A stretch of DNA of 64,000 nucleotides from an uncultured delta proteobacterium (GTDB lineage: Bacteria; Desulfobacterota; Binatia; UBA9968). The position numbers and the translations under genes were made by a program. The first letter of the stretch is position 1; each line of letters opens with the position of its first letter. The stretch lies in assembly GCA_963840855.1 (NCBI GenBank), contig CAWJBB010000050.1:96001-160000 (forward strand), read 5' to 3'. Below are positions 1 through 17,128 of this stretch, one piece after another. The notes below the pieces were generated by a model. That model had not been told where the DNA came from, did no database searches, and saw nothing but the letters and a program-made list of their open reading frames with translations.

Positions 1-739
1 TAAACGCAAAGACCGCGAGCCGTTTTTGGTTAGCAAACACCAGCGGGCCCGAGGGGAGCACATAGAGTCCATCCGGTCGCTGCTTGTTTAACGCAGCAAA
101 TACCTTCTCGAAACCGTCCACATCTCGTACCTCCCAAGGCTGAATAGTCAACTTCAGCGCACGCGCCGCGACCGGGAGAACCTCTTTCATGTCGAGTTCA
201 GCGCCTAGATTGGCCGGATCGTAGAGAACCGCGACACGGGCAAGTTTGGGAACGGCCTCTTTGAACAGCTCCAGCCGCTTGCCGCTTAGTTGTCTGCTAA
301 CGTTTGTGATGCCGGTGACGTTGCCGCCGGGACGCGCAAGGCTATCGACCAGGCCTGACTCGACAGGATCGAGGCCACGGCCCACCATAACGATGGGAAT
401 CGTCTTGGTCGCATTCTTGGCCGCCTGGATCCAGCTGTTCCCTCCTGCTACTACGATGACATCGACCTTGAGGCTTATCAGCTCGGCCAGAAACCTCGGG
501 CCTCGATCGCGCTTCCCCTCCGCATATCGGTACTCACTGGCGATGTTCTGTCCTTCTATGTAGCCCAGCTCGTGCAGAGCCAGCCGAATTGTCTCAAAAA
601 AGGTGGACTCAGTAGCTGGATCGTTCGCCGACAGATACCCTATCCGCGGGACCTTCTTCGGCTGCTGCGCGTCGGCTATGACTCCAACAGCAAGTAGGAT
701 CACTACGAACAGGATTGACGAGACACCAGCTTTTTTCAT
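1..739 (-). CDS. ABC transporter substrate-binding protein (COG2984-type), runs off window (SBP0)
   Basis: ATG at 739 reads MKKAGVSSILFVVILLAVGVIADAQQPKKVPRIGYL; contains SLARPGGNVTG and GKRLELFKEAVPK motifs shared with the paralogs at 7.5-12.8 kb. Confidence 0.9.
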   Translation of the reverse strand, partial: MKKAGVSSILFVVILLAVGVIADAQQPKKVPRIGYLSANDPATESTFFETIRLALHELGYIEGQNIASEYRYAEGKRDRGPRFLAELISLKVDVIVVAGGNSWIQAAKNATKTIPIVMVGRGLDPVESGLVDSLARPGGNVTGITNVSRQLSGKRLELFKEAVPKLARVAVLYDPANLGAELDMKEVLPVAARALKLTIQPWEVRDVDGFEKVFAALNKQRPDGLYVLPSGPLVFANQKRLAVFAF

Positions 740-846
740 TGCAGACACCATTTGCGCATTACACGGAAGGTAGCAGAGAAAAGTGACATTTACGACAGAA
801 GGCGAAAGGTATTCCGTCGAGTGGAAAAACCAGATTTTTAGCCTGA

Positions 847-910
847 GATTGAATTGAACGACGCATCCGGCAAATCTCACAGGATGCAGTCAACAGAGAG
901 GGATTAGTTC
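847..910. repeat. Inter-cassette palindromic element P, copy 1 (right arm degenerate)
   Basis: gattgaattgaacgacgcatccggcaaatctcacaggatgc; inner stem gcatcc/ggatgc. Confidence 0.75.
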
Positions 911-1103
911 CGCGCCACGTTTAACGCTCGCCTCCCGCACAACCTCACGAGGGTTTTTGTCTTCACGCAAGCCGACGAAAGCGATTGCCGTAGATGCGCG
1001 TCCGGCGTCCACTTGGCAAACTCGATGTGGCCACTTTCATCGACAGCCACAATTTCGATCAAGAATTTGAAGCTCTTGAATGAAGCCTTATGGAGGAAAT
1101 GAC

Positions 1104-1532
1104 TCAAGAGCTGCGTCGATAGTCCAGAAACAATCCAGCTACTCTTTTGACGAGATCATCTATAACACGCCGGGTGGATTCGAGCTGCGCGCCAGCTTCT
1201 TTCCTAGGATCGGAAACCGGCCAATATTCCCATCTCGTCCGTGATGGAAAACTTGGAACGGGACCATCGAGGCTTCCCACGACTATGATTAAGTCAATAT
1301 CGTCGCGAGAGATTTCACCTAATCCTTTGCTGGCCCGCGTCAGTTTGATTCCGCGTTCCGCTAACGCCTCAACCGTTCCTCTGTCGGTGGGTCCAGGAAT
1401 AATACCTGCGCTGAAAATTTGCACTTGAGGAGAGTCTAGCCGCATTGCGATCGCTTCTGCTATCGGACTCAGGCAGGCGTTGTCCTGGCATAAGAACAGG
1501 ATTCTCCTATCGCGAATAATGTTTCTGACCAC
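1104..1532 (-). CDS. Low-molecular-weight phosphatase/arsenate reductase-fold protein with degenerate P-loop
   Basis: ILFLCQDNACLSPIAEA, SAG, DLII, W..SDP motifs; GGGGGAG RBS before GTG; Arg of CX5R replaced by Leu. Confidence 0.8.
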   Translation of the reverse strand: MVRNIIRDRRILFLCQDNACLSPIAEAIAMRLDSPQVQIFSAGIIPGPTDRGTVEALAERGIKLTRASKGLGEISRDDIDLIIVVGSLDGPVPSFPSRTRWEYWPVSDPRKEAGAQLESTRRVIDDLVKRVAGLFLDYRRSS

Positions 1533-1944
1533 TTTCTCCCCCCAATGATTTCAATGATTGACCCGAATTGTTTTACAGTACTGGTGCGGCTCTCAATTTT
1601 AGGAACGGCTTCCAGGCAACACCCTTTGGCGAGTGATCCGGCCAACGGAAAAGCTTCAGCCCAAAATCTATGGAACCGGGAATAGTAAGACTCCATCCGG
1701 AATTTGTCTTGACATTGTGCGCCATTCGATTGATATCTGCGGCGGCCTGGGTTGAGTTGGCGAGAAAGGTTTGACAAATCCACCGCACAAGGACAGGAGA
1801 TGAAAGAGGGTGCGTTACACGTTTTGTGATAATAAGAGCAGTCTGAGACGGCTAATGAAAGGCGCAACGGTTACTCGGCCACGCATATCATAACGACCAA
1901 GATGTCGGGGTGCCGCTCTTGGCAGCCAGAAGGCCAGACCACCA

Positions 1945-2047
1945 TGAGACTGAACTAAATGACGCGCGTCAATCGAATGCGACGTAGGATTGGTTTTGCG
2001 ATGGGGATGAATTCAGAGCGCTCAGATGGAGAATTCAGTTCAATCCT
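1945..2047. repeat. Palindromic element P, copy 2 (left arm degenerate)
   Basis: degenerate gagactgaactaaatgacgc at ~1946; intact right arm ggagaattcagttcaatcct at 2028-2047. Confidence 0.7.
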
Positions 2048-2223
2048 GAAATCGCCGCTTGGTTACTTGATCATCCGATCCGCAGCGCCCCTTTTTTCAT
2101 ACGCCGCCCGAGCCAGCCGAAGCAACATTGGGATTTTCATCAAACAGAAAGACGATTGACATCCCACCGGTCCGGCGATATTGCTCAGGCCAGAACAAAA
2201 GGTGGTTTAAAATTCCTATACAG
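2028..2223 (+). repeat. ~195-bp module copy A: P right arm + SBP 3'-end remnant + promoter
   Basis: near-identical to 3278-3469; ttacttgatcatccgatccgc (2063-2083) reads ADRMIK* on minus strand. Confidence 0.9.
2156..2184 (+). promoter_or_regulatory. Putative sigma70 promoter in module A
   Basis: TTGACA at 2156-2161 followed by gatattgc; conserved in module B. Confidence 0.5.
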
Positions 2224-2341
2224 AAAATCGCCTTTGGACGATCTGTCCTTTAATGGAAGGCTCTAAAGATCGGCCAAACAAAAGTTCAAATGTGATCGGT
2301 GTTTAATCCAGTGGATAGAAATAGCTCATTGGCAGAGTCGC

Positions 2342-2810
2342 ATGCTTGGATTGTTCAAGTCAGCATCATTTGTTGACCCACAGCTTGGCGAGTTACATCG
2401 CTCGCGCGGTGCATGGCGCGGAACACTCAAACTCGACGGTGAAGCGCCGGTAACTCTCATATTAAGCGGGAGCCGGCGCCGAAGCGTTGCGCATCGCACG
2501 GTCCTTGCCTTCAGACTACGCGTCCTGGCGGCCTGCTATCGAACGGGAGCTATTCGATCACTACTCACCATACGCGGAGACTGTTGCCGCAGGAGAACTG
2601 GATGCCCCTTCTTCGGGTCTACCGCCTATCGATGCTCCCTCCTCGGTCTGGGGTCATACGACCGTGGCGTTTGTTCAGGTAACTCCCCTTGGCGGTGTTC
2701 TCACTGTCGAGCTCGGTTATCGGGTCGCCTGGGATGAAGAACACACCTTGGGTGCTCGCTTTCGGGCTGGCCAGCTGTTTGAGTTATGCGGTAGTGTGTT
2801 AGCGCCATGA
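2342..2810 (+). pseudogene. Hypothetical protein (DUF6985-like), frameshifted near 2480
   Basis: ORF 2342 N-terminus continues in ORF 2487-2810 (WDEEHTLGARF). Confidence 0.6.
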
Positions 2811-3152
2811 CAGCGGCGCCCAACAACAGAGACGTTAACACTCTATCGAATTGTTTCTCCTCAATCCAAGAGTGCGCGTGAGTAGATTCGCCAGGCAAGG
2901 TTTTTAAAATGCGATTGGCGCCCAATCCAAGGGATAAAAGTAGCTCGTTAGCAGGGTCGTCGAGTAAAAGAAAACTAGGAATGTCAGGGTCGCCAGGGAT
3001 AGGCGAAGAAGTTTTGCCACGGATAAATCCTCCCTGTGTTGTTGCTTAGTGCCCGATATCGCAAATCCACGCCAAACGCCAGAGTTTCTAATTCGAGGGG
3101 AACACGTAGAGAGGTTCTGAGGCGTCGATCAGTTAGGCGATCTCTCCGAGGC

Positions 3153-3206
3153 TTCGACATCGACATCGACATCGAACACTGCCCGAACTGCGGCGGCAGC
3201 TTGAAC
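3153..3206 (+). mobile_element. IS91/ISCR-family transposase C-terminal fragment
   Basis: FDIDIDIEHCPNCGGSL resembles the VFxIDIExCPxCGGxL Zn-ribbon tail of IS91-type transposases. Confidence 0.6.
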
Positions 3207-3230
3207 ATAGCACATTCGCATAACCGCAGA

Positions 3231-3293
3231 ATTGAACTGATCGACGCAACGGGCAAATCTCACAGGATTTGTTAGACGGAGAAATTCAATCCT
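3231..3293. repeat. Palindromic element P, copy 3
   Basis: attgaactgatcgacgcaacgggcaaatctcacaggatttgttagacggagaaattcaatcct. Confidence 0.85.
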
Positions 3294-3469
3294 GGCATCG
3301 CCGCTCGGCTACTTGATCACTCGATCCGCAGCGCCCCCTCTTTCATACGCCGCCCGAGCCAGCCGAAGCAACATTCGGATTTTCATCAAACAGAAAGAGG
3401 ATTGACATCCCACCGGGTCCGGCGATATTGCTCAGCCAGAAAAAAAGGTGGTTTAAAATTCCTATACAG
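3278..3469 (+). repeat. ~192-bp module copy B: P right arm + SBP 3'-end remnant + promoter
   Basis: ctacttgatcactcgatccgc (3309-3329) = ADRVIK* on minus strand; TTGACA at 3402; identity with copy A ends at cctatacag. Confidence 0.9.
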
Positions 3470-3522
3470 CTATAGTTTAAATTTAAACGATAAAAGTCTA
3501 TCTACTCTCTTGGGGGGCATGA

Positions 3523-4239
3523 ATGACCCGTAGCGCGACGACAGGTGGCCTGGTCCAGGACCTGGTTCTGGCCAACCGAATTCTTGCAGATCAGGGCGTA
3601 TTGGACGGATTCGGGCACGTCAGCGCCAGGCACGATTCCGACCCCGGCCGGTTCCTGATCAGTCAGTCCCGGGCACCATCCGCCGTAACGGCCATGGATA
3701 TCATGGAAATCGACTTCGCGGGCAACCCCGTGCCCGGGACCGGTCTAAAGCCACCTCTAGAGCGATTCATTCACGGCGAAATCTTCAAGGCCCGCCCCGA
3801 CGTGATGGCGGTAGTTCACAGTCACTCGCCCTCGATAATTCCGTTTGGCGTTACGGGCGGCAACTTGCGCGCCATATGCCACGTTTGCGCGTTTCTAGGT
3901 AGCAAGACCCCGATATTCGAGATACGGGACGGCTTTGGAGACGCTACGGACCTCCTGATCAGGAATATCGAGACGGGAGCGGCATTGGCGAAGGCCCTCG
4001 GGGCAGCCCCTGTCATACTCATGCGAGGGCATGGAAATGCCGTAGTTGGCACGAGCATCCGGCATGCGGTGTATCGAGCTATTTATACGGAACTGAACGC
4101 CCGGCTCCAGTCGGAGGCGATGCGGCTTGGCGACGTCACCTTCTTGAGCGAGGCAGAGTCGAAGAACGCGACCCTGGGCGTGGAGGCGGATCTGTCGAAG
4201 CCTTGGGAACACTGGGTGAAAAGGGTGCGGGTCGATTAA
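3523..4239 (+). CDS. Class II aldolase/adducin family protein
   Basis: GHVSAR, ERFIHGEI, VHSHSP, LMRGHG motifs. Confidence 0.92.
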   Translation: MTRSATTGGLVQDLVLANRILADQGVLDGFGHVSARHDSDPGRFLISQSRAPSAVTAMDIMEIDFAGNPVPGTGLKPPLERFIHGEIFKARPDVMAVVHSHSPSIIPFGVTGGNLRAICHVCAFLGSKTPIFEIRDGFGDATDLLIRNIETGAALAKALGAAPVILMRGHGNAVVGTSIRHAVYRAIYTELNARLQSEAMRLGDVTFLSEAESKNATLGVEADLSKPWEHWVKRVRVD

Positions 4240-4336
4240 CACGAGCGCCGGCTACGAACCGAGCAACGCGTCGTTGAAAACCATTTGTCAGAAACCCGCT
4301 AGCAATCGCATTCGGAAGTGATATGAATCGCGCGCC

Positions 4337-6286
4337 GTGAGGATACTGGAGCCAATTACGTCTATGTCATCCAGCCCAATAAGCGATAGCCGCGTGCCGC
4401 TAGACGCGGTCCTGTGTACCGAGGAATTGAATCGACGGCCGCCGCGCCCGCCGGACTACGAGACGGAAATCCGCGCCCTGGTGACCCTGGCTCAAGCGCT
4501 GGCCGACTCGCCGCGAACCATTCTTCAGACATTGGCCGACAAAATCCTGGAAGTTTTCCAAGCTGGCTCAGCGGGCATCAGCCTGCTGACCAAGGACGAT
4601 GGCGGAAAAAGGTTCCACTGGCCGGCGATCTCTGGCGTGTGGAAACCGCACATCGGCGGCGGAACGCCGCGCGACTTTGGCCCCTGCGGCGACGTGCTCG
4701 ACCGTAACGCCGCGCTACTGTTCCGGCATTTCGAACTGCGTTACACCTATTTCCTGCCGGTGACGCCTCCAGTCGAAGAGTGCCTGCTCGTTCCTTTTTA
4801 CGTCGAGGGGAAAGCAGTCGGCACGATCTGGGCGATCGCCCACGACGCTCGCCGCAAGTTCGATGCCGAGGATCTCCGGCAGCTTGAAAGTCTCGGCCGG
4901 TTTGCATCAGCGGCATATCAGGCCGTGGAGTTTCTTGATGCATTGGAGCAACGATCCGAAGCATTGCGGCGAAGCAACGCCGAACTCGCCGAGCGCATGG
5001 CCGAACTCCGGAACGCCAACGCACAGGCTGAGGAAGCGCGCCGCGCCGCGCTCAACGCGAATGCCGATCTTGAAAACCGCGTCGCGGACCGAACCGCCGA
5101 CCTGCGGCGGAGTATTGCCGAACGCGAGGAACTCCAGGACCAACTGCTGCAATCGCAAAAGATGGAGAGCGTAGGCACTCTCGCCAGTGGTGTTGCCCAT
5201 GATTTCAATAACCTTTTGAATATTATATTAAGCCACGCCACCAGTATGCGCTTAGACGGCAAGAACCCTGCGACCATTTCCGAAGGTGCCGCTGTCATTG
5301 AAGAGACCGTCAGGCGGGGAGCCAGCCTGGTCCAGCAGCTCATGACGTTGGGCCGAAAGACCGAGACCAAGTTTGAGCCTGTAAGGCTTAACAGCTTAGC
5401 CGAGAAACTGACCAATCTTCTCACAAAAACCTTTCCCAAGACGATCATCATAATTCTGGATCTGGAGCCGGGGCTTCCTGTGATTAACGGCGACGAGAAC
5501 CAGCTACATCAGACTCTGCTCAATCTCTGCGTCAACGCGCGCGATGCCATGCCCGAGGGCGGCCGCATGTCACTCAAAACCGAAACGGTTTCGGGAACTG
5601 ATCTGCGACGCCACGTCCCGGAAGCAGCAGCAGAATGCTATGTCTCCATCAGTGTAACTGATCGTGGCATCGGCATGGACGATGCGACTCAGCGGCGCGT
5701 TTTCGAGCCGTTTTTCACGACCAAGCCGGTAGGAGAGGGAACTGGGCTCGGTCTCGCAGTGGTTTACGGCATCGTAAAAAATCACGATGGTTTCATAGAA
5801 GTAAAGAGTAAGCTAGGTCACGGGACGACCTTTTGGATCTACTTGCCGATTCCGAGCGAAGCCACACGGCAAACATCTGCAGCGGGATCAAACTACACTG
5901 CGCTAAAGCGAGCGGGTAGTGGGGAGACGATTCTTTTCGTCGACGACGAGGAGAGGCAGTTGAATGTCATGCGGCGTTTTCTTGAGAACGAGGGATACAG
6001 AGTTCTCAGCGCCCAAGACGGCGTTGAGGCGGTGGAGACTTTCAAGCAACACAAAGACGCGATCGCCGTGGCGGTGCTGGATTTGGGTCTCCCGCAACTC
6101 GACGGTTGGCAAGCATTTCAGCAAATGAGAGAAATTCGCCCCGAGCTAAAAGCGCTCATCGCTACAGGCCTGATCTCCCCGGAAGTCGAGGCTGAAATCG
6201 CGCAAGAAAAATTGTGTGCAGTGCTTTCCAAGCCGTACCAGCTAGATGACGTTCTAGAGAAAATTTCGCAGGCGATCCATGGTTAG
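4337..6286 (+). CDS. GAF-containing hybrid sensor histidine kinase/response regulator
   Basis: GAF, AHDFNNLL H-box, FEPFFTTK, GTGLGL, C-terminal receiver domain. Confidence 0.95.
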   Translation: MRILEPITSMSSSPISDSRVPLDAVLCTEELNRRPPRPPDYETEIRALVTLAQALADSPRTILQTLADKILEVFQAGSAGISLLTKDDGGKRFHWPAISGVWKPHIGGGTPRDFGPCGDVLDRNAALLFRHFELRYTYFLPVTPPVEECLLVPFYVEGKAVGTIWAIAHDARRKFDAEDLRQLESLGRFASAAYQAVEFLDALEQRSEALRRSNAELAERMAELRNANAQAEEARRAALNANADLENRVADRTADLRRSIAEREELQDQLLQSQKMESVGTLASGVAHDFNNLLNIILSHATSMRLDGKNPATISEGAAVIEETVRRGASLVQQLMTLGRKTETKFEPVRLNSLAEKLTNLLTKTFPKTIIIILDLEPGLPVINGDENQLHQTLLNLCVNARDAMPEGGRMSLKTETVSGTDLRRHVPEAAAECYVSISVTDRGIGMDDATQRRVFEPFFTTKPVGEGTGLGLAVVYGIVKNHDGFIEVKSKLGHGTTFWIYLPIPSEATRQTSAAGSNYTALKRAGSGETILFVDDEERQLNVMRRFLENEGYRVLSAQDGVEAVETFKQHKDAIAVAVLDLGLPQLDGWQAFQQMREIRPELKALIATGLISPEVEAEIAQEKLCAVLSKPYQLDDVLEKISQAIHG

Positions 6287-6522
6287 GGCTGGGGCAAACA
6301 ATGATCAACGAATATTCGGCCAAATTCCATCCCGTAAAACTCGGCCAACCCGGCTAAGTCGAAGCCGAATGTAATACCAGTGTCTTGAAACCGTACGACT
6401 TCCACCACGGAGCCCAGGCGACCGTCTTTGAGGATCGACCCGAAGGGATGCCAATAATGGGTATAAGGCGGCCCAGGAACGGCGCTGCCGGTGATCCAAT
6501 AGCCTTTGTAGCGTTCCATCAT
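6283..6522 (-). CDS. Small hypothetical protein
   Basis: 79-aa ORF overlapping the SRAP stop (coupled). Confidence 0.55.
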   Translation of the reverse strand: MMERYKGYWITGSAVPGPPYTHYWHPFGSILKDGRLGSVVEVVRFQDTGITFGFDLAGLAEFYGMEFGRIFVDHCLPQP

Positions 6523-7196
6523 AGCAGTTTGCCTTCAGCCGGGAGGATGCATTCCGGCGAATCGTTGCGGTGATTGTTCACAAAGGGTGACACGTCGTAG
6601 CCTTCCATCTTTTCCGGCGGATACGGTTTCAGCAAAGTGAGAGCATGAGCGATTTCGTAGTCAAGGGCAAGCCATTTAAACGCGTCGTCGTTACTGAGCA
6701 TGACGGGCATCCGATTATGGATCGGGCGCAACACGTCATTCGACTCCGTCGTGACAATCGTATAGGTCCGCAATGAACTTCCATCCGGTTGCTTCCAGCT
6801 ATCCCACAAACCGGCGAACGCGAACGGTTCCCCGGACTTGAGCTTGAACCGCATGGGGGCTTTTCGCTTGCCCCCTTGCCGCCACTCGTAAAAGCCATCG
6901 GCAAGAACGAGACAGCGGCGATTCCCCAGCAGCCCCCTGAAAGCCGGTTTCTCAGCGAGCGTTTCAGCGCGGGCGTTGATCATCACGTTACCGATGGCCG
7001 GATCATTCGCCCACCAGGTAATCAACCCCCACCGAAAAAGCTCGATTCTTCGGTTTGAGTCCGCTTGAACGATTACTGGCGCTTCTTGACTCGGAGCGAT
7101 GTTATATCGGGGCGTTAAACCGAAGATTTCATCGACATTCCAGGCAACGCGAAGGTCGGAAAATTCACGGGGAAAATAAGTGTAGCGGCCGCACAT
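6519..7196 (-). CDS. SOS response-associated peptidase (SRAP/YedK-HMCES family)
   Basis: N-terminal MCGRY, RYNIAP, INARAET, FYEW, IHNRMP. Confidence 0.95.
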   Translation of the reverse strand: MCGRYTYFPREFSDLRVAWNVDEIFGLTPRYNIAPSQEAPVIVQADSNRRIELFRWGLITWWANDPAIGNVMINARAETLAEKPAFRGLLGNRRCLVLADGFYEWRQGGKRKAPMRFKLKSGEPFAFAGLWDSWKQPDGSSLRTYTIVTTESNDVLRPIHNRMPVMLSNDDAFKWLALDYEIAHALTLLKPYPPEKMEGYDVSPFVNNHRNDSPECILPAEGKLL

Positions 7197-7416
7197 CACT
7201 AAGTATATCGCTACGGCGGATCGCGGTCAAATTTCACCTGCGGCGTATGATGCAGAAGGCGCGCAGGAACTACGGACAGGAATTTTGGTGGGCGCCGGGC
7301 GACCCTACGCCGGCCAGGGCGCCGGATGTGGAGGCGGCGGTGCCAGACTGAAAAGATCGGATAACTGTCGACCTGTCGGCACTTAGAATATCGAGAACGT
7401 TGCGGGCCACTAAAAC

Positions 7417-7517
7417 GACCTCGTTCTAGGCTATCACGCACACGGCAATTGCGAAAAGGATTTGCGGCAGAAGAGAACTACGTTTCGTCGAGAGAAAATA
7501 GGCCAAATTCGGCCTGA
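7417..7517 (-). promoter_or_regulatory. Orphan SBP leader (no SBP gene downstream)
   Basis: acctcgtt...ctatcacgcacacgg...gtttcgtcgagag...ggccaaa resembles the leaders at 8555-8660, 9747-9848 and 11949-12052. Confidence 0.65.
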
Positions 7518-7547
7518 GATTGAACTGAAGGAGAATTCAGTTCAATC
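7518..7547. repeat. Palindromic element P, copy 4 (minimal form)
   Basis: perfect 12-bp IR gattgaactgaa / ttcagttcaatc with 6-nt loop ggagaa. Confidence 0.92.
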
Positions 7548-7576
7548 CTGCGATTCGCTACTAAGTGTTTCTGCCA

Positions 7577-8551
7577 TCACTTGATCACTCTATTCGCTCT
7601 CACCAACACGTTCGGCGGAATCGTCAGGCCGATCTGTTTCGCTGTCTTCAGATTGATGATGAACTCAAACTTCGTCGGCTGCTCCACCGGCAGGTCGGCA
7701 GGCTTGGTGCCCTTGAGGATCTTGTCTACATAATACGCCGCACGCCTGAAACTTTCAGCTTCATCGGCTGAATAGGACATCAGGCAACCAGCCTCCACGT
7801 AATCACTTCTTTCACACATGGATGGTATTCGGTTCTTTATGGCAAGGTCAGCGATTAACTTTCGATGACTAATGGTCACACCCTGGGTATCGACAATGAG
7901 CGCGCTCACACGCCCGCTGGTCGCCACTTGGAATGCTCCCTCAAAATCAGGGTTTGGACCGCGAACCTCTAGCGAGAGAATCTGCACCTTTAGTGCGCGT
8001 GCCGCAGACTCGTAATCTGTCGTCAATCCGCCCAGGACTCCAATGCGCGACACTCCCGGAATCGCCTCGTTAAGCAATTCCAGCCGTTTACCGATTAAGT
8101 CCTTGGTGAGTCTCGTGAGTCCTGTGATATTTCCGCCTGGATGCGCTAAGCTATCTATTAGCCCAAGCGCGACTGGATCGCCGGTAATCATCATCACGAT
8201 GGGAATCGTCTTGGTCGCCTGTTTGGCTGCACGGATACCTGAATTAGCTGCGGAGACAAGCACATCGACCTTGAGCTGTACGAGCTCAGCCGCGAAGCCT
8301 GGAAGACGGTCCCCCACTCCCTCAGCATAGCGATACTCGACAAGGATGTTTTTCCCCTCAATATAACCGAGATCCCTTAGCCCTTGGCGGAATGCATTCT
8401 CGAACAGATCGGGACTAGTAGACGTCGGCTTGACCCTGTTCGACAAAAATCCGATCCGCGGGCCTTTGCCCGGCTGCTGCGCTTCGGCTGTAACTCCAAG
8501 AGCAAGCAAAAACACTGCAACCAGGATTGACGGCACCGCAGCCTTCTTCAT
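7577..8551 (-). CDS. ABC transporter substrate-binding protein (COG2984-type) SBP1
   Basis: signal peptide AEA-QQ; PGGNITG; PADLPVEQPTKFEFIINLKTAKQIGLTIPP. Confidence 0.95.
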   Translation of the reverse strand: MKKAAVPSILVAVFLLALGVTAEAQQPGKGPRIGFLSNRVKPTSTSPDLFENAFRQGLRDLGYIEGKNILVEYRYAEGVGDRLPGFAAELVQLKVDVLVSAANSGIRAAKQATKTIPIVMMITGDPVALGLIDSLAHPGGNITGLTRLTKDLIGKRLELLNEAIPGVSRIGVLGGLTTDYESAARALKVQILSLEVRGPNPDFEGAFQVATSGRVSALIVDTQGVTISHRKLIADLAIKNRIPSMCERSDYVEAGCLMSYSADEAESFRRAAYYVDKILKGTKPADLPVEQPTKFEFIINLKTAKQIGLTIPPNVLVRANRVIK

Positions 8552-8658
8552 TGCACACCTCGTTTCGAGCGTTACTTATCACACGGACGGAAATAAAGAA
8601 AAGTGTGAGTTACGGCGGGAGGCGATATGCGTTCGTCGAATACAAAGGCCAGAATCAC

Positions 8659-8734
8659 GCTAGGATTGAACTGAACGACGCAACGGACGAATCTCACAGG
8701 ATTTGTTAGACGGAGAATTCAGTTCAATCCTAGC
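8659..8734. repeat. Palindromic element P, copy 5
   Basis: perfect 17-bp IR gctaggattgaactgaa / ttcagttcaatcctagc with inner stem gacgaatc/gatttgtt. Confidence 0.95.
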
Positions 8735-8756
8735 ATCGCCGCTTTGTTTCTTTCGA

Positions 8757-9743
8757 TTACTTGATCACCTGATCCGCCCGCGCCAACACGTTCGGCGGGA
8801 TAGTCAGGCCGATCTGCTTCGCCGCTTTCAGACTGATAATGAACTCGAACTTCTTCGGCTGTTCGACGGGAAGATCGGCGGGCTTGGTCCCTTTTAGGAT
8901 TTTGTCAACGTAAGTGGCGGCGCGCCGCCACATATCAGCAAGGCTTGCTCCATAGAACATGAGGCCGCCGACATCCACAAATTCCCTATGTGCGTACATC
9001 GCCGGCAACCGGCTCTTGGCCGAAAGGGCCACAATTCGTCCTGCCTGACTAACGAACATCGGGTCTGGCAGCACCATAAGCGCCCTGGCTCCCTCGCGGG
9101 TTGTGGCCTCGAAAGCCTTGTCAAACTCGGTTGGATCGCGGACCTCTTGGACCCGAATCTGGACTCCCAATGCTCGGGCCGCAACCTCCATGCCTTTTAG
9201 CGACAGCTCACTGTCTGGATTCCTTGGATTCGAGAGCACAGCCACCCGGGAGACCTTCGGGACGGCTTCCTTGAGCACCTCCAACCGTTTCCCGCTTAAC
9301 TCTTGCCCGAGAGCGGTCAGTCCCGTGATGTTTCCCCCAGGGCGCGCAAGGCTAGCAACGAGCCCGCCCGCGACAGGATCGCCGGTCGTCACCATGACAA
9401 TGGGAATCGCACCAGTGGTGTTTTTCACAGCTATAATCCCTGGTGTAGACCCTACTACGATCACGTCCGCCTTAAGGCGGACAAGCTCAGCAGCGAAACC
9501 TGCGAGACGTTCGATATTACCTTCAGCATACCTAGGCTCAAGCTTGATGTTCTGTTCCTCCACGTACCCGTGTTCGCGTAACCCTTGTCGAAGCGCGTCG
9601 ACCAGTTGAGGAGCACCAGACGCGCTGGCGGGAACAAAGGCGCCTATCCGGTGAACTTTCTTCGGCTGCTGCGCTTCGGCTGTAACTCCAAGAGCAAGCA
9701 ACACCACGGCAACAAGGATTGATGGCACCGCAGCCTTTGTCAT
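8757..9743 (-). CDS. ABC transporter substrate-binding protein (COG2984-type) SBP2
   Basis: same family motifs as SBP1. Confidence 0.95.
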   Translation of the reverse strand: MTKAAVPSILVAVVLLALGVTAEAQQPKKVHRIGAFVPASASGAPQLVDALRQGLREHGYVEEQNIKLEPRYAEGNIERLAGFAAELVRLKADVIVVGSTPGIIAVKNTTGAIPIVMVTTGDPVAGGLVASLARPGGNITGLTALGQELSGKRLEVLKEAVPKVSRVAVLSNPRNPDSELSLKGMEVAARALGVQIRVQEVRDPTEFDKAFEATTREGARALMVLPDPMFVSQAGRIVALSAKSRLPAMYAHREFVDVGGLMFYGASLADMWRRAATYVDKILKGTKPADLPVEQPKKFEFIISLKAAKQIGLTIPPNVLARADQVIK

Positions 9744-9848
9744 TGCGCACCTCGTTTCGAGCGTTATGTATCACGCGGATAGAGATAAAGGAAAGTGTGA
9801 TTTACGACGGAAGTCGACGACGTTTTGTCGAGGCAAAAGACCAAATTT

Positions 9849-9924
9849 GGATTGACACTGAACTGTACCAATAGCGTGAGGTGAATTTAGCAGGTTTGAG
9901 CCGATAGAGAATTCAATTCAATCC
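9849..9924. repeat. Palindromic element P, copy 6 (divergent)
   Basis: ggattgacactgaa ... gagaattcaattcaatcc. Confidence 0.8.
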
Positions 9925-9950
9925 TAGCATTGCCGCTTCGTTTTCTTCGA

Positions 9951-10928
9951 TTACTTGATCACTCTGTCCGCTCTCGCCAACACGTTGGGCGGGATCGTGA
10001 GACCGATCTGCTTCGCGGCTTTCAGATTGACGATGAATTCAAACTTCTTCGGCTGCTCGACGGGCAGATCCGCGGGCTTCACGCCTTTCAGAATCTTGTC
10101 GACGTAAAAAGCGGCGCGGCGATACAGATCGGAAATGCTCGTCGCATAGGTCATGAGCCCCCCGGCGTCAACAAATTCCTGCTCAGGATACATCCCCGGC
10201 AACCGGTATTTGACTGCCAACTTGACCAATCCTTTTTGATGAGTAACGAAAAACCCACCTCTGTCAGGGATGAAAGCATCTGCACGGGTCCGAACGATCG
10301 ATCGGAACCCGTTTTCCATATCTTCAGAACTTTCTACCGCAACAGAGTTGATGTGTACTTTGAGCAACCGCGCCGCGGCCTCGGTTTCTTTAAGATCACT
10401 GGACGGGCGGCGCACGTCCAAGAAAAAGGCTACGCGAGAAAGCTTTGGAATAGCTTCCTTGAGCAACTCAAGTCGCTTGCCTGCTAGATCGGAAACAAAA
10501 TTGCTCAGTCCCGTGATGTTTCCGCCGGGCCGTGCCAGGCTGGCGATGAATCCCTCGTTAACAGGGTCTGCCGTGTTGGCCATGATGATCGGAATGGCGC
10601 CGGTGGCTTGCTTGGCGGCACGAGTCGGAGACCCGCCCGCGGTGACGATGCAGTCGACCTTGAGACGCACGAGGTCGGCCGCCAGCTCCGGAAGGCGATC
10701 GATGTTTCCTTCCGCCGAGCGGTACTCAATAGCGACGTTTGTTCCTTCTACGTAGCCAAACTCTCGCAGCCCTTGGCGGAAGGAATCGAGCCGGGATGCC
10801 AACGAGGAAAGTGAGGCGGTCGAAATAAAACCTATCCGCGGAACTTTCCCTTGCTGCTGCGCCTGAGTGGGAACGCTGAGCGCCAAGAGCAAAGCGCTAA
10901 GAGCCAAAGCAAAAATGTGTTTCATCAT
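9951..10928 (-). CDS. ABC transporter substrate-binding protein (COG2984-type) SBP3
   Basis: same family motifs; different signal peptide. Confidence 0.95.
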   Translation of the reverse strand: MMKHIFALALSALLLALSVPTQAQQQGKVPRIGFISTASLSSLASRLDSFRQGLREFGYVEGTNVAIEYRSAEGNIDRLPELAADLVRLKVDCIVTAGGSPTRAAKQATGAIPIIMANTADPVNEGFIASLARPGGNITGLSNFVSDLAGKRLELLKEAIPKLSRVAFFLDVRRPSSDLKETEAAARLLKVHINSVAVESSEDMENGFRSIVRTRADAFIPDRGGFFVTHQKGLVKLAVKYRLPGMYPEQEFVDAGGLMTYATSISDLYRRAAFYVDKILKGVKPADLPVEQPKKFEFIVNLKAAKQIGLTIPPNVLARADRVIK

Positions 10929-10937
10929 TCTTTCCTC

Positions 10938-10965
10938 TCACGCCTTACGCCTCACGGCTCACGCC
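10938..10965. repeat. Heptamer tandem repeat (tcacgcc x4)
   Basis: tcacgcc ttacgcc tcacggc tcacgcc between SBP4 stop and SBP3 start. Confidence 0.8.
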
Positions 10966-11945
10966 TATCGAATCACTTTGTCCGCCCGCGCCAGCACGTT
11001 CGGCGGAATCGTCAGGCCGATCTGCTTGGCGGTTTTTAGATTGATGACGAACTCGAACTTCATCGGCTGCTCGACGGGGAGATCGGCGGGGTTGGCGCCT
11101 TTGAGGATTTTGTCCACATACGTAGCGGCGCGGCGGGCCAAGTCGTTGAGGTTCACGCCGTAGGTCATAAGCCCCCCGGCTTCCACAATTTCTCGATTGC
11201 GGTATATCACTGGGAGCCGGCTCTTTGCCCCGAGTTCTAGAATCTCGGCTCGGCGAGGATCGAGGTTGGGGCCCGATACCTGGACAATGACTGCCTCAGC
11301 CCGCCCCTTGGCTGCGGCTTGGAAGGCACTCTCAAAATCCTTGGGACTTTGGATGTCAAGGTATTGAACCTTCACTCCGAGCGCCCCTGCCGCGAGGTCA
11401 ATCTCTTTTTGAATTTGCGCGTAGTCCGGGGTGGCGAAGACGGCCACGCGCGAGAGCTTGGGAACGATCTCCTTCAGAAGCTCCAGTTGTTTGCCGCTCA
11501 ACTCCGGGCGAAGGGTTGCCAATCCCGTAATGTTTCCACCAGGCCGCGCTAGACTCGCCACGAAGCCGCTCCCAACAGGATCGCCACCTTGAACCATGAC
11601 AATGGGGATTGTGGCAGTCGCCTCCTTGGCCGCGCGTATATCTCCCGAACCGCCCGCAACGATGACGTCTATTTTGAGACGCACCAGGTCGGCCGCGAGC
11701 GCGCGCTGGCGATCGCGGTTTCCCTCACCAGATCGCCACTCAATGATAATGTTTTCCCCCTCAACGTACCCAACCTCGCGCAGCGCCCGCCGGAATGCCT
11801 CGCGTGAGGCCGACGCAGCGGACACAGGCGTATTAGTTAGGTATCCTATCCGCGGGACTTTCTTCGGCTGCTGTGCCTCGGCCAGGACCGCAACAGCAAG
11901 CATTACGACTGCAACCAGGATTGATGCCCATCCAGCTTTTTTCAT
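10965..11945 (-). CDS. ABC transporter substrate-binding protein (COG2984-type) SBP4
   Basis: MKKAGWASILVAVV start by homology to paralogs; family motifs. Confidence 0.95.
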   Translation of the reverse strand: MKKAGWASILVAVVMLAVAVLAEAQQPKKVPRIGYLTNTPVSAASASREAFRRALREVGYVEGENIIIEWRSGEGNRDRQRALAADLVRLKIDVIVAGGSGDIRAAKEATATIPIVMVQGGDPVGSGFVASLARPGGNITGLATLRPELSGKQLELLKEIVPKLSRVAVFATPDYAQIQKEIDLAAGALGVKVQYLDIQSPKDFESAFQAAAKGRAEAVIVQVSGPNLDPRRAEILELGAKSRLPVIYRNREIVEAGGLMTYGVNLNDLARRAATYVDKILKGANPADLPVEQPMKFEFVINLKTAKQIGLTIPPNVLARADKVIR

Positions 11946-12052
11946 TGCGCACCTCGTGCTGGAGACTATCACGCGCACCATAATTCCGAAAACAATTATT
12001 TAAGGCAGAAAAGGCAACGACTCGTCGAGAGGAAAAATACGAAATCCGACGT

Positions 12053-12122
12053 AGGATTGAACTGAACGACGCATCGGACAAATCTCACAGCATTGCGTCG
12101 TCGGAGAATTCAGTTCAATCCT
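12053..12122. repeat. Palindromic element P, copy 7
   Basis: 14-bp IR aggattgaactgaa / ttcagttcaatcct; inner stem acgacgca/tgcgtcgt; cggagaa bulge. Confidence 0.95.
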
Positions 12123-12147
12123 GGCTTCGCATTTTGCTTTTCTTCCA

Positions 12148-12768
12148 TCACTTGATCAACTTGGTCGCCCGCGCGAGTACCTCCGGCGGAATCGTGACGC
12201 CGATCTGCTTCGCGGTTTTGAGATTGATCACCAGCTCAAACTTCGTCGGCTGCTCCACCGGAAGTTCAGCGGGCTTGGCGCCTTTAAGAATCCTGTCCAC
12301 GAAATATGCGACGCGCCGGTAGCTGTCCGCTTCGTCCGCCCCGTAGTACATGAGCCCGCCGGCGTTTACAGCTTCTCTGTTGCCGAACACCGACGGTAGC
12401 CGGCTCTTAAACGCAAATTCCAGGATCCGTTTTCGGTTAGGACGCATTACCCTGCCCGCGGTCACCGGGTAGAGTCCATCCGGGCGCTCCTTGTTTAGCG
12501 CAGCAAAGACCTTATCGAAGTCGTCCACCGCTCGTATCTGCCAAGGTTGAATAGTCACCTTTAGCGCACGCGCGTCGGCTGGGAGAAGCTCTTTCACCTC
12601 GTGTAAACTTTGCGGATTGGCCGGATCGTAGAGAACCGCGACACTGGCAAGTTTGGGTACCGCTTCTTTGAGCAGCTCCAGCCGCTTCCCGCCTAGTTCT
12701 CCGGTAAGGTTGGTAACGCCCGTGACGTTGCCGCCGGGACGGGCAAGGGTTTCAACCAAGCCTGCCTC
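12148..12768 (-). pseudogene. 5'-truncated SBP (SBP5), interrupted by IS21 end
   Basis: homology starts at EAGLVETLARPGGNVTG; N-terminal ~120 aa missing. Confidence 0.88.
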
Positions 12769-13015
12769 TGACCGATTTCACGGAACGTACCCACCCAATT
12801 TCAACGAAGGGACCCACCTGATTTCAAGGAAGGGACCCACCCAATTTCAGGTGGTCCCCTTCGTTTCTGAGCGAGCCGACGAACGATGCTACCTTGGCCA
12901 ACTGGAGGAGGATCCAGTTAATGGCCAAAGAAAGGACCAGCGTTCGTATGCGAGCTCAAATCAAAACCCTGTCCGAACAGGGGCACTCCGTTCGCCGTAT
13001 TGCCCGGATACTTTT
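12769..13015 (+). mobile_element. IS21-family left end with truncated istA
   Basis: starts TG; three 23-bp tandem terminal repeats at 12774-12842; GGAGGAGG RBS, ATG 12921 MAKERTSVRMRAQIKTLSEQGHSVRRIARIL (IstA-like HTH), then truncated. Confidence 0.8.
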
Positions 13016-13212
13016 ATCGGGCTCCTCGGGTATAGCGATGCGCGCGTTTAGGAGGGCTCAAGTTGGTACACCTAGAAGGGGGCACACCTTGGTACACCTA
13101 GGGGGGCTCACGTGGGGGTACCCGTCACAATACATAAGAAAGTACATTCTTAAGTACATTACTAGAGAATTATTCTCTTATGTATTCTTTCTTGTGGGTA
13201 GATAGGTCGGTG

Positions 13213-13641
13213 ATGGGTAGCAAGTCTAAAGTTGATGTTACGAAGTATTCTTGGCCGGCATCACTACCAGAGAAGCCAAACCTTCGATTGGTAGGAACGA
13301 GGCGCCGGATAAAGTTGAAGGGGGAGTTTTTTGGGCCTGTCCCAGCCTGGTGGTTGATCCAGGCTTTACGGGCAGGGATACGAAAAAGCTATGGTGCGGT
13401 TTTTATTGGGCTGCTGTTATGGCGGCAGTATTGGCTTGAACGCCAGAAGCAGCCGTTAAAATTGACCGGAGCGGTATTGAAGAAATTTGGACTCGAGAAA
13501 CGTTTTGCGCGGCACGCCCTAGACGCCCTGGAGAAAGCCGGCCTGATTTATGTGCAAAAGTTTAATTACCGGTCTCCACTGATAACGATCGTGACACAAG
13601 AAAAGGACTATCTTTCATGGACGAAGCGATTAGATACATGA
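13213..13641 (+). CDS. Winged-helix-like DNA-binding protein (possibly replication-related)
   Basis: KFGLEKRFARHALDALEKAGLIYV wHTH-like pattern. Confidence 0.55.
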   Translation: MGSKSKVDVTKYSWPASLPEKPNLRLVGTRRRIKLKGEFFGPVPAWWLIQALRAGIRKSYGAVFIGLLLWRQYWLERQKQPLKLTGAVLKKFGLEKRFARHALDALEKAGLIYVQKFNYRSPLITIVTQEKDYLSWTKRLDT

Positions 13642-13860
13642 ACGAGGCTTGGCGAAAAGTAATCGCACATGAGGCGCGGGAGCTCGTGGAGCGAAAGTGT
13701 CAGAGATCCCACAACCAGGACAAAAAAAGGTCGGACTCGATGACCACTTTGTTGCAGGCGGGCGCATTGAGGACTTGGAAACGTTCACGCTTGGCGGGCA
13801 GACCTTCCGGTCGACGTCGTTCTGGTATGGGCAATGGAAGTTAAAGGCGTAGTTAGCAGC

Positions 13861-14064
13861 ATGACACGGTTTGCTTGTGCGTGGAAAGGGTGCAGCGAAA
13901 AGTGGGCGGGAAGTTTCGAGACGATGCCTATGGAATGGGGATGGCCGTCCCGTGCCAGCATCGACTTCATGAAACAGCGCGGACTCATCGATCAAGAAAT
14001 AGATTCTCCGTATCTCTGCCCAGCACATACGCACGAACTTTTGAGTATGAAAACTCAAGCCTAA
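13861..14064 (+). CDS. Small Cys/His-containing hypothetical protein
   Basis: CAWKGC...LCPAH. Confidence 0.45.
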   Translation: MTRFACAWKGCSEKWAGSFETMPMEWGWPSRASIDFMKQRGLIDQEIDSPYLCPAHTHELLSMKTQA

Positions 14065-14088
14065 CCAACGGAAAACCAACGAAAACCG

Positions 14089-14397: not shown

Positions 14398-14432
14398 AAC
14401 CATCGTATCGAGTAAACCGACATAAAACCGAC

Positions 14433-17045: not shown

Positions 17046-17128
17046 AGTGAACTTGACTTTTATCGGACAGGCTTTTGACTGGAAACCAATGAGTAGGGGT
17101 AAACCGCTGAATATGAAAGCAAAATATT

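Follow-up and report, generated by a model that had tools for sequence, protein, structure and literature searches.

SBP gene remnants, palindromic sites and IS91-family ends in an accessory region of an uncultured Binatia bacterium

Acinetobacter plasmids carry pdif modules, gene-sized blocks with a short, inverted site of recombination type on each side, centred on 6 nt. One-ended transposition of IS91 co-mobilises neighbouring DNA, the family creates no target duplication, and the ends of its members are subterminal palindromes beside a GTTC-type tetranucleotide (excerpt of PMC13181058). The oriIS-side region of ISCR1 is described as variable, and outward promoters are carried by the element (excerpt of PMC6218425). 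REP palindromes are reported close to ORF 3' ends, between unidirectional and convergent genes (excerpt of PMC3733652), and ISPpu9 in Pseudomonas REPs provides a published parallel of an IS that targets palindromes (excerpt of PMC8450116).

The window analysed here is a 64,000-nt stretch of a Binatia genome (G000). An initial annotation had described units in which the body of an SBP gene was replaced by cargo genes, and had proposed that the SBP-derived unit ends were the mobile parts of a gene-capture element. We lean towards reading these shells as scars of junctions in an accessory region of high plasticity; on this view the ends of SBP genes do not make up a vehicle. What looked like a new gene-capture shell would then resolve into two known processes that interact, ISCR-like IS91-family elements and REP-like palindromes, neither of which has to our knowledge been described in these uncultured soil bacteria. 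The whole feature is contained in an island of ~65 kb bounded by a tRNA-Ser repeat: the 3' 61 nt of the tRNA-Ser feature (17128-17220, minus strand; tRNA itself 17129-17220), positions 17128-17188, are perfectly repeated at C50:48086-48146. A tyrosine integrase gene (15945-17045, plus strand) lies beside the tRNA at this end of the island. An Rfam search of window positions 1-13500 with E up to 1 gave 0 matches.

A bipartite palindromic site around SBP genes

The PF04392 SBP genes were found as units of ~1.12 kb with a 34-nt imperfect palindrome on each side, single units measuring 1111-1130 bp from arm to arm. The complete site consisted of two adjacent palindromes of this kind (14-6-14). S2, upstream of the promoter-bearing leader, is made of a left arm, CGACGC and a weak arm; S1 is made of a weak arm, GGAGAA and a right arm, the latter ~28-45 nt past the SBP stop codon. 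Two abutting SBP units produce a 70-nt site, the reference copy of which is at 8662-8731 between two SBP genes; an intact PF04392 gene was identified by Pfam at 7577-8551 (minus strand). The two sites that the initial annotation had placed at 3231 and 7518 both exist but differ in form: 3228-3297 is a 70-nt site (S2 + S1) with a small deletion in the right arm, whereas 7516-7549 is a short site with the order left arm, GGAGAA, right arm (14-6-14). This short form was found at eight other places among the loci examined, some of these belonging to a long site as its inner arm.

When up to 2 mismatches were allowed, the window contained 10 occurrences of the 14-nt arm TTCAGTTCAATCCT, where chance would give 0.36, and a count of 10 was reached in 0 of 100 shuffled sequences. 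The genome contained ~100 arms, classified as 60 right-type and 48 left-type, with 22 paired as full sites. The site was also present in related genera, and a 20-mer from it was shared with MAGs labelled as several phyla; this 20-mer gave 0 matches in viral contigs, and blastn with the 86-nt site gave 0 matches in a plasmid collection. The arm sequence was also met in the literature, as a LAMP primer in an unrelated paper. Judged by title and start of abstract, none of the six papers naming PF04392 dealt with arrays or repeats.

Alignment of 61 distinct sites showed that the arms, GGAGAA and CGACGC were at least 90% conserved or invariant, and the arm sequence was retained where the SBP proteins were just 52-81% identical. 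The bipartite palindrome brackets one orphan binding-protein family, and its sequence is much more strongly conserved than these genes. A selected hairpin was considered and dropped: consensus folding of the 61 sites paired the arms only, with a covariation term of 0, and a compensated change of any kind was seen in 1 of 10 predicted arm pairs. Since the arms do not co-vary, the hairpin as such is not the conserved feature. The near-invariance of the arms and of both 6-nt spacers over many genomes counts against the scar reading, since a site dedicated to recombination or processing would explain it no less well than a hot spot with a passive role.

Like REP and BIME sequences, which measure 20-40 bp, the sites are short extragenic imperfect palindromes in 34-nt units, with ~100 arms per genome; adjacent pairs could form two hairpins or a single joint one; a specific IS occupies a fixed position within them; and they sit just past gene 3' ends in unidirectional arrays (compare the excerpt of PMC3733652). 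Unlike REPs, they lack a terminal GTAG/CGTC tag, CGTC being part of the 6-nt S2 spacer and not of a palindrome foot; no RAYT gene is adjacent, and a single gene family accounts for most of their associations. A RAYT/REPIN system was rejected, as the Y1_Tnp genes (C85:56170, C1:95988, C40, C82, C41:317497, C83, C65:116539 and C30) lie away from all classified arms. The palindromes could be REP/BIME-like elements that a putative protein recognises and that act as hot spots for IS insertion and recombination.

A rival explanation is ordinary decay only. The palindromes would then have a regulatory or 3'-UTR function (as mRNA stabiliser, terminator or insulator), like REPs located behind genes for periplasmic binding proteins, and would have been copied with tandem SBP duplications; the shells would be random indels in which the sites play no part. 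S1 and S2 do sit between the stop codon and the terminator-like hairpin and T run that open the next leader, a position comparable to that of REPs near ORF 3' ends (excerpt of PMC3733652). The search for further SBP-less or SBP-truncated units called for in the initial annotation was productive at both types of arm. Right arms adjoined SBP 3' ends in 38 of 53 cases; 7 of the 53 had 3' fragments, 6 a stub only and 15 no SBP. Among 48 left arms, 6 were followed by a leader without SBP and 5 by a leader with a 5' fragment. The remnants beside sites ranged from ~9 to ~200 codons, a continuum and not a fixed shell, and many SBP genes were frameshifted, 51 of 152 HMM-positive ORF pieces being full length; both observations agree with decay. 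They are countered by the clustering of breakpoints at sites (the split site around 886-2021, an IS at an exact position, block borders at arms), by arms that do not co-vary and by the retention of arm sequence at low SBP protein identity. We regard decay alone as quite unlikely.

SBP stubs, an orphan leader and their IS91-family neighbours

The left part of the locus contains a split site. Its left half (845-885; left arm, CGACGC and a degenerate inner arm of S2) adjoins the leader of an SBP gene at 2 to ~750 (minus strand), and its right half (2022-2047, plus strand) consists of GGAGAA and the right arm (2034-2047). The 1.1-kb block between them (886-2021), with an LMW phosphatase gene at 1104-1532 (minus strand), is thus located inside the site, which corrects the initial map; its first 150 bp are present again beside another left half-site at C50:56613. 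The right half is followed by an SBP trailer and 3' stub (2048-2099, minus strand), by X-right (2100-2225, plus strand), the terminal ~122 bp, with the oriIS-type end, of the IS91-family element X, with homology stopping at ...CCTATACAG, and by the first cargo gene, DUF6985 (2342-2810, plus strand; two frames in this assembly). X-left (3160-3208, plus strand) covers 16 codons from the 3' end of the ORF for the X transposase (...EHCPNCGGSL) and is separated by 22 nt from the left arm of the 70-nt site at 3228-3297; window positions 3162-3209 matched residues 305-320 of the transposase. A second trailer and stub plus 19 nt (3298-3345, minus strand) and a second X-right (3346-3469, plus strand) precede the second cargo, a class II aldolase gene (3523-4239, plus strand). 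A GAF-HisKA-HATPase-REC hybrid histidine kinase gene (4337-6286, plus strand) and an SRAP module (6290-7417, minus strand) complete the unit; the module contains a 79-aa ORF (6283-6522, minus strand) that belongs to no Pfam family, SRAP (6519-7199) and 218 nt upstream. An SBP-type leader with promoter region, 5' UTR and RBS, and no coding sequence, lies between this module and the short site (7418-7515, minus strand). Pfam agreed with the gene contents first proposed (aldolase, hybrid kinase, small ORF, SRAP) and identified the different gene of the unit at 2028 as DUF6985.

As previously noted, the minus strand encodes ADRMIK* at 2063-2083 and ADRVIK* at 3309-3329. These stubs retain ~9-10 SBP codons and not the last 7, and each runs into the 122-bp IS91-family end, which had not been recognised. 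Both are parts of one ~190-bp composite, and not independent remnants, in the order right arm of S1, trailer, ~9 SBP codons, 19 nt and the last 122 bp of X. Five copies of the composite were found in the source genome. Window positions 2025-2223 were 93% identical to C65:378-576 and 94% identical to C27:165694-165891; within the window, 2039-2223 and 3285-3469 were 93% identical; and C50:82024-82182 matched the composite at 93% without an arm. No match spanned the composite junction among the 40 relatives searched, and X-right and X-left occurred separately in relatives (at least 15 pieces in G002, at least 10 in G003). Another SBP-X junction, with 27 SBP codons, at C35:25254-25497 is independent of the composite. 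These comparisons indicate a single origin of the stub junction, which was multiplied afterwards to five copies together with the IS91-family oriIS-type end. The proposal of exchangeable cargo holds in so far as the sites mark the borders of exchangeable blocks; SBP ends as the cis-acting ends of a transposon-like vehicle are not supported.

The order at C65:387-5336 is right arm, stub, X-right, GH63-like gene, carbonic anhydrase fragment, Y2 transposase remnant, X-left, 22 nt and left arm. It appears to be a circular permutation of an X-type arrangement, which we count in favour of the scar reading. Counting against it, the site and stub between X-left and X-right replace ~200 bp of X, so that some of the sequence between transposase and terminus is exchanged, unlike in ISCR/IS91 elements, and both junctions lie away from any IS terminus. 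We propose that copies of X with an embedded site may have entered the SBP array by recombination at sites, and that deletions would have followed.

The orphan leader was confirmed beside the right-hand site. Four SBP genes that are intact in the window have leaders with which it could be aligned, the alignment beginning 5-8 nt upstream of the position expected for the ATG. The SRAP module is multi-copy: blastn against the source genome gave 17 pieces at 77-91% identity, the module's own match among them. In the unit at 3283-7549, the stub and the leader come from different events, with the leader fused to the multi-copy SRAP module; the leader would be what remained after this module had replaced the SBP coding sequence. 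The unit does not end in X-left and is therefore not a simple integrated circle.

A non-autonomous transposon or MITE with cargo, as first suggested, is not supported by the unit borders: the arms are inverted, but the flanks extend the palindrome and there are no direct repeats. Neither target duplications nor a filled/empty pair were found for any shell unit. The same unit was not recovered in several places, nor were empty sites for the shells: the DUF6985, aldolase and kinase segments were single-copy in the source genome, and the composite was not found in the 40 relatives. The kinase had an 85%-identical stretch in the same-genus genome G001, where the 1.5 kb upstream was devoid of aldolase, X or arm on a contig of ~3.8 kb that is too short to judge more. 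The tally behind this comparison took in two unpublished genomes, G009 and G015, on which none of our claims depends.

The source assembly is a MAG with 8% contamination, so that some joins at repeats may be artefacts of assembly. Only one junction was independently bridged: contigs of 2 public soil runs spanned X-right to DUF6985. The best holder among public runs contained 0.18 of the sampled words, and 4 soil runs gave short contigs that contained no joint of use at a site and left 3473-4340 nearly uncovered; these contigs are therefore uninformative on the aldolase junction.

Two IS91-family elements at the site

Pfam searches of the source genome gave 13 Y2_Tnp matches, with one full-length copy that also matched Zn_Tnp_IS91, a domain that often accompanies Y2_Tnp in the IS91 family. 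Full-length ORFs are found at L128:1243-2322 (Y2_Tnp) and L128:10918-11922 (Y2_Tnp and Zn_Tnp_IS91). Domain content identifies X as an IS91-family rolling-circle element with an HUH Y2 transposase. With the window copies included, blastn detected 27 pieces of X-right and 19 of X-left in the source genome, and alignment with canonical copies made both the transposase C-terminus and a common terminus visible. Most copies were 5'-truncated. The 3' terminus was sharp, and the DNA beyond it differed in every aligned copy. The terminal sequence ...GGTTTAAAATTCCTATAC resembles, we assume, published oriIS ends. In the window copies and on C65, the cargo began exactly at the terminus and the first ORFs pointed away from it. 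The cargo block therefore has IS ends, a finding the initial annotation had named as one that would speak against its proposal.

X resembles ISCR/IS91 elements in its Y2 HUH transposase, its defined 3' terminus with variable DNA beyond, its outward-facing cargo and an outward promoter-like site. The latter (3402-3429, plus strand) faces the cargo, and X-right may provide an outward promoter; this was 1 match, against 1.3 expected by chance. Unlike in described elements, the X terminus has no adjacent CTTG/GTTC, and no target of this type was present in the variable flanks after the terminus in the aligned copies. That X acts like an ISCR element, with an oriIS-type end followed by variable DNA, is for this reason something we can only infer. 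The putatively mobilised cargo also differs, ordinary metabolic and signalling genes of a soil MAG taking the place of resistance genes.

A second IS91-family element, with Phage_integrase and Y2_Tnp domains (197.6 bits for Y2_Tnp in the C35 copy), was located at one exact position of S2 in all four true copies (C35, L030, L045 and L099), which come from several genomes. In each of them the oriIS-type end ...CATTCAGGTTAAAACCTATCCG lies directly against TTCAGTTCAAT and is followed by TTCAGTTC, with GTTC 4 nt away; the left junction comes after GCGTCG+TT. Comparison of the filled C35 site with a paralogous empty site at C85:117079 (GCGTCG|TTCAG to GCGTCG-TT-[element]-TTCAG) left an ambiguous TT as the only candidate for a target duplication. 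The two ends are dissimilar, as expected of a family with different terIS and oriIS ends in place of inverted repeats, and the S2 junctions show no hybrid core sites and have the appearance of HUH-type insertions. A single exact palindrome position for an IS91-family element that carries a tyrosine recombinase would be an unusual target specificity for the family.

The juxtaposition of oriIS-type end and arm in 4 of 4 copies would also agree with another explanation. SBP and cargo units would be rolling-circle or single-strand (HUH) elements of a non-autonomous kind, and Y2 or Y1 transposases of the genome would mobilise them in trans, with the palindromes as ter/ori-like or hairpin signals. 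The genome has 13 Y2_Tnp and 10 Y1_Tnp matches, units were found in head-to-tail arrays, and each arm contains GTTC, comparable to the tetranucleotide at IS91-family ends (excerpt of PMC13181058). Yet neither IS91-family element has ends with any sequence in common with those of the units, contig stretches with Y1_Tnp genes carry no arm, and the cargo is single-copy. SBP paralogue bodies are 61-75% identical, which indicates old duplications and not recent transposition. Trans-mobilisation of this kind is in our view very unlikely.

Recombination between sites as an alternative

In a modified form of the original idea, S1 and S2 would be 14-6-14 core-type sites of a tyrosine recombinase, host Xer-like or IS91-borne, and whatever lies between two like sites (an SBP gene, a GAF kinase, the SRAP module or a cargo block) would leave and re-enter the chromosome as a module, in the manner of pdif modules or integron cassettes. 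The geometry, including the short left arm-GGAGAA-right arm forms, and the conservation of arms and spacers in the 61 sites agree with such a function. The strong arm adjoins the gene on both sides, so that the units are flanked by inverted sites. SBP units are uniform in length, and the same arms bound units with a multi-GAF kinase and response regulator, an O-methyltransferase, other SBP types, an ECF sigma factor or SRAP. Identity between paralogous loci is lost at the right arm (C69:68183 against C85:101458; window 7527, where 7527-9017 is 89.7% identical to C50:94508-96001), and paralogous blocks have their left borders at the S1 spacer or arm, which also counts against the scar reading. 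At C35, a tyrosine recombinase gene lies beside the site.

The comparison with pdif modules and integron cassettes is nevertheless incomplete. As in those systems, gene-sized modules lie between short inverted sites with a 6-nt centre and neighbours carry different genes; unlike in them, there is no linked recombinase, no module in two contexts, a chromosomal island as location, and two sites instead of one between neighbouring units. Clustering of the ORFs of 89 site-bearing loci returned SBPs as the only widespread family, with no recombinase consistently linked to the arrays, and no unit occurred in two contexts with exact site-to-site borders. The spacers of S1 and S2 differ, which disfavours exchange between S1 and S2; the IS junctions at S2 are HUH-like without hybrid core sites, and the contigs of the four soil runs yielded no informative joints. 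The Xer/dif core, which XerC/XerD-type recombinases bind and cleave, has an 11-6-11 geometry, compared with 14-6-14 here; the strong arm may resemble a XerD half-site. An integron was also considered and rejected: a TIGR02249 match above cut-off was found at C1:45987-46880, but C1 is a contig without arms, a point that weighs against the recombinase explanation too. The ATTGAAC/GTTCAAT of the site is, as we take it, one base each off the attC cores RYYYAAC/GTTRRRY, and in attC the structure is conserved while the sequence varies, whereas here the sequence is conserved and the pairing is not. Altogether, excision and re-insertion by a tyrosine recombinase seems unlikely to us, and would become directly testable if a protein acting on the sites were found.

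A broader version would be an undescribed module-exchange system, with both 34-nt palindromes as dedicated processing sites (5' CGACGC, 3' GGAGAA). Orphan PF04392 genes would form most of its units, next to GAF kinases, SRAP modules and cargo borne by IS91 elements, all of them shuffled between islands and soil lineages, and IS91 elements with a tyrosine recombinase would share the sites as a landing pad. The chromosome would thereby have its own equivalent of pdif modules or integron cassettes; we consider such a system distinctly improbable.

In a FastTree phylogeny of 92 SBP proteins, sequences from MAGs labelled Acidobacteriota, Verrucomicrobiota and Binatota interleaved with the paralogues of the source genome, a pattern that would be compatible with either mis-binning or transfer and cannot separate the two. 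On this tree, 17 changes were needed between the site and no-site states.

Anatomy and distribution of the palindromic site

Most genes of the window's tandem array of PF04392 substrate-binding proteins (SBPs; 7577-12759, minus strand) were separated by a 70-nt imperfect palindrome with the arms AGGATTGAACTGAA and TTCAGTTCAATCCT. The window contained 10 arms at two mismatches or fewer, against 0.36 expected. Scanning the genome under study (contigs C1, C27 and so on) returned 620 matches at up to three mismatches, some of the 3-mismatch arms probably being chance matches. Classification by the adjoining hexamer gave 60 right-type arms (GGAGAA before the arm) and 48 left-type arms (GCGTCG before the arm, in its own orientation), and full sites amounted to 22 arm pairs. 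Half-sites at array ends retained a degenerate inner arm, indicating that the site is made of two adjacent 34-nt palindromes. S2 (left arm-CGACGC-weak arm) forms part of the 5' flank of the next gene, and S1 (weak arm-GGAGAA-right arm) lies about 28 nt past the preceding gene's stop codon. Short 14-6-14 forms, which read left arm-GGAGAA-right arm, are found as well, for example at 7516-7549. Single-SBP units measured 1111-1130 bp from arm to arm.

Alignment of 61 distinct sites from this and other genomes showed that the arms, GGAGAA and CGACGC were invariant or at least 90% conserved and the inner parts variable. The two arm positions that vary across this set showed no co-variation within a site, so it is sequence that is conserved and not pairing. 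The 36-nt gap (10929-10964) between the SBP genes at 9951-10928 and 10965-11981 lacks a palindromic site; a site is thus not obligatory between units. In several genomes, right arms that lack the usual SBP trailer directly adjoin a second hairpin-like repeat (…GGTTAACG…), as seen at C85:108740-108800, C41:209060-209118 and the loci L046:2679-2720 and L090:2130-2178. At C35:31990-32250, a small ORF with two CxxC motifs has its stop codon inside an arm, …RLN* being encoded by AGATTGAACTGA (read by eye).

The site was present in 13 of the 41 genomes searched, this genome included: 11 of 24 from the same family, 1 of 5 from a second family and 0 of 11 from a third. The 20-mer GGAGAAWTCARTTCAATCCT was found in at least 88 contig stretches. 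Among the matches listed, records were labelled Binatia, "delta proteobacterium", Syntrophobacteraceae, Pyrinomonadaceae/Blastocatellia and Verrucomicrobiia, together with a 1.76-Mb Chloroflexia contig and an Actinomycetota contig. Arms flank SBP genes in these loci too, and the encoded proteins share only 52-81% identity with the SBPs studied here. Since phylum labels interleave with our paralogues in the SBP tree, many of the small contigs may be mis-binned, and we do not claim cross-phylum transfer. Rfam returned no family match, plasmid and viral collections no site match, and the arm sequence was not found in any relevant context in the literature.

SBP stubs and IS91-family elements

The initial annotation had pointed to the last SBP codons beside two sites, and both ADRMIK* (2063-2083) and ADRVIK* (3309-3329) are present in the sequence. 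The ~190 bp following the right arms at 2028 and 3283 shared 93% identity with each other and 90-94% with C65:378-580 and C27:165649-165891. At C50:82024 a fifth copy, lacking an arm, starts at the stop codon of the stub. This segment is a composite of right arm, trailer, SBP stub, 19 nt and the terminal segment (X-right) of an IS91-family rolling-circle element, here called X. X-right (2100-2225 and 3346-3469) is a repeat with 27 blastn pieces in the genome, and X-left (3160-3208) one with 19. Alignment with canonical copies identified X-left as the end of the X ORF (...RVFDIDIEHCPNCGGALKIIA...) and X-right as that element's terminal segment, with ...GGTGGTTTAAAATTCCTATACAG at its end. The ORF encodes an IS91-family HUH transposase (13 Y2_Tnp matches in the genome), and one full-length copy also matched Zn_Tnp_IS91.

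In the composite, the ~200 bp between X-left and X-right are swapped for 22 nt, the site, the trailer, about nine SBP codons and 19 nt. The X terminus is the exact end of homology among copies, and a different gene then reads outward from each: DUF6985 at 2028, where a different gene had indeed been noted, aldolase and kinase at 3283, and a GH63-like gene in the C65 copy. Circular permutation is evident in the C65 unit, where right arm, stub and X-right come first, then the cargo and a transposase remnant, and finally X-left, 22 nt and the left arm; the window unit at 2028-3241 has this layout too. A separate SBP-X junction at C35:25254-25497 retains 27 SBP codons and lies at other positions in both partners. 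No match in the 40 relatives searched spanned the composite junction; X-right and X-left were common in the same-genus relatives among them. Contigs of two public soil runs bridged the X-right/DUF6985 junction. Contigs of three such runs carry an extra 1 + 10 nt at 2475-2476. DUF6985, whose reading frame is broken in two in the window, is therefore probably intact elsewhere, which leaves a pseudogene or an assembly error as the options for the window copy.

PMC13181058 describes IS91-family elements as having two different ends, oriIS and terIS, each with subterminal palindromes, making no target duplication, requiring a CTTG/GTTC-type tetranucleotide beside oriIS and co-mobilising adjacent DNA through one-ended transposition. 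For ISCR1, PMC6218425 describes a variable region on the oriIS side and outward promoters. X agrees with this picture on three points: its sharp 3' end, the variable, outward-reading DNA beyond that end and a promoter-like TTGACA-16-GATATT at 3402-3429 (one match against 1.3 expected by chance). The CTTG/GTTC-type target tetranucleotide is absent at X. At C1:66000-100000 (locus L127) lies a run of 5'-truncated X copies, each made up of a 3' piece of the transposase gene and the terminus, with a different gene behind every copy; the run resembles an ISCR-style array free of SBP sites.

Sequence comparison shows the site to be the target of a second element of the IS91 family, inserted at one exact position. 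This element (C35:32262-34658; 12262-14658 of locus L120) encodes a tyrosine recombinase (Phage_integrase and Phage_int_SAM_4) and then a Y2 transposase, and sits in S2 (...GCGTCG-TT-[GGACTAAACC ... AACCTATCCG]-TTCAGTTCAATCTC). Its oriIS-type end abuts the arm in all four true copies (C35 and three other genomes), with differing leaders, and the other end adjoins (A/T)CGACGC in one more MAG (locus L086). At C85:117079 the right flank is as at C35 and S2 is uninterrupted, giving a filled/empty pair without target duplication.

The initial annotation had proposed gene capture by mobile unit ends. Broadly the idea fits, in that gene-sized blocks of this region are exchanged at conserved sites. 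At the cargo junctions, however, the likely agent is an ISCR-like end of the IS91 family, and the pieces of SBP genes look like scars. With modest confidence, we favour the view that the shells, units keeping an SBP tail or leader around unrelated genes, are scars of IS91-type activity combined with recombination at REP/BIME-like hot spots. We consider it unlikely that the conserved sites belong to a true site-specific module system, and very improbable that the units are non-autonomous elements mobilised by an HUH enzyme.

Shells and cargo across the genome

In the 3283-7549 shell, the aldolase, GAF hybrid kinase, 79-aa ORF and SRAP genes lie between stub and leader, as previously annotated. 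The SBP-type leader (7418-7515) likewise held up, aligning with the leaders of intact genes and starting 5-8 nt upstream of the expected ATG. The SRAP module (6290-7417) occurs in many copies (17 blastn pieces, itself counted, at 77-91% identity). The paralogue at C50:88731-89832 has its end point, too, at the position matching 7417 and diverges thereafter. Because the leader piece starts at 7418, the module stands in the place of the SBP coding sequence, in the same orientation. The SRAP-leader junction is unrelated to the stub-X junction. Rightward from 7527, 1495 nt are 89.7% identical to C50:94508-96001; the stretch is a segmental duplication, its left border at the S1 spacer or arm.

The census covered 53 right arms (two mismatches or fewer) and 48 left arms. 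Right arms adjoined a full-length SBP in 25 cases (some frameshifted), a 3' SBP fragment of 43-201 codons in 7, only a stop-proximal stub in 6 (3 of them the composite) and no SBP or another flank in 15. Left arms adjoined a leader with full SBP in 17 cases, a leader with a 5' SBP fragment (~26-232 codons) in 5, a leader without SBP in 6 and no SBP or another flank in 20. Arm-bounded units without an SBP carried a 4-GAF or 10-GAF histidine kinase with response regulator, an O-methyltransferase and a LysM protein, SBP_bac_6/8 proteins, a diacylglycerol-kinase-like protein, an ECF sigma factor with its anti-sigma factor, a subtilase, or SRAP. Other SBP-less shells, for which the initial annotation had suggested a search, are therefore present in the genome, as a continuum of truncations and replacements. 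Plain decay around regulatory palindromes strikes us as distinctly unlikely.

Three further loci have a paralogue of the cargo-type GAF histidine kinase ~0.85-1.2 kb past a left arm (C46:105477-105809, C75:19539-19871 and C27:162765-163097). Instead of being foreign cargo, sensor kinases may thus regularly accompany these SBP arrays.

Genomic setting

The genome is a MAG of 7.1 Mb in 93 contigs (56% G+C; completeness 94%, contamination 8%), in which the window corresponds to C50:96001-160000. Only 51 of the 152 ORF pieces matching the SBP profile were full length, and the many frameshift-split SBP genes are either pseudogenes or assembly indel errors. The window array closes with a truncated SBP gene, and three tandem copies of a ~23-nt unit follow it immediately (12774-12849). 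Elsewhere, C1:45987-46880 encodes an integrase of the integron type (TIGR02249; 442 bits, cut-off 265), and three more tyrosine recombinase ORFs lie just upstream; the C1 contig showed no SBP-type arms, and no obvious cassette array lay beside this integrase.

A tyrosine integrase (15945-17045) adjoins a tRNA-Ser gene (17129-17220), whose 3' 61 nt (17128-17188) form a perfect direct repeat with C50:48086-48146, 65 kb away. Weaker 33-nt copies of this repeat lie at C41:219043-219075 and C41:229145-229177. From the 61-nt repeat and the adjoining integrase, the whole SBP/IS mosaic looks to be held in an integrated island of ~65 kb, which would enclose the SBP arrays, shells and IS remnants at C50:~56-109 kb. 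Its left part contains accessory genes such as those for a STAND NTPase and an ATP-dependent DNA ligase.
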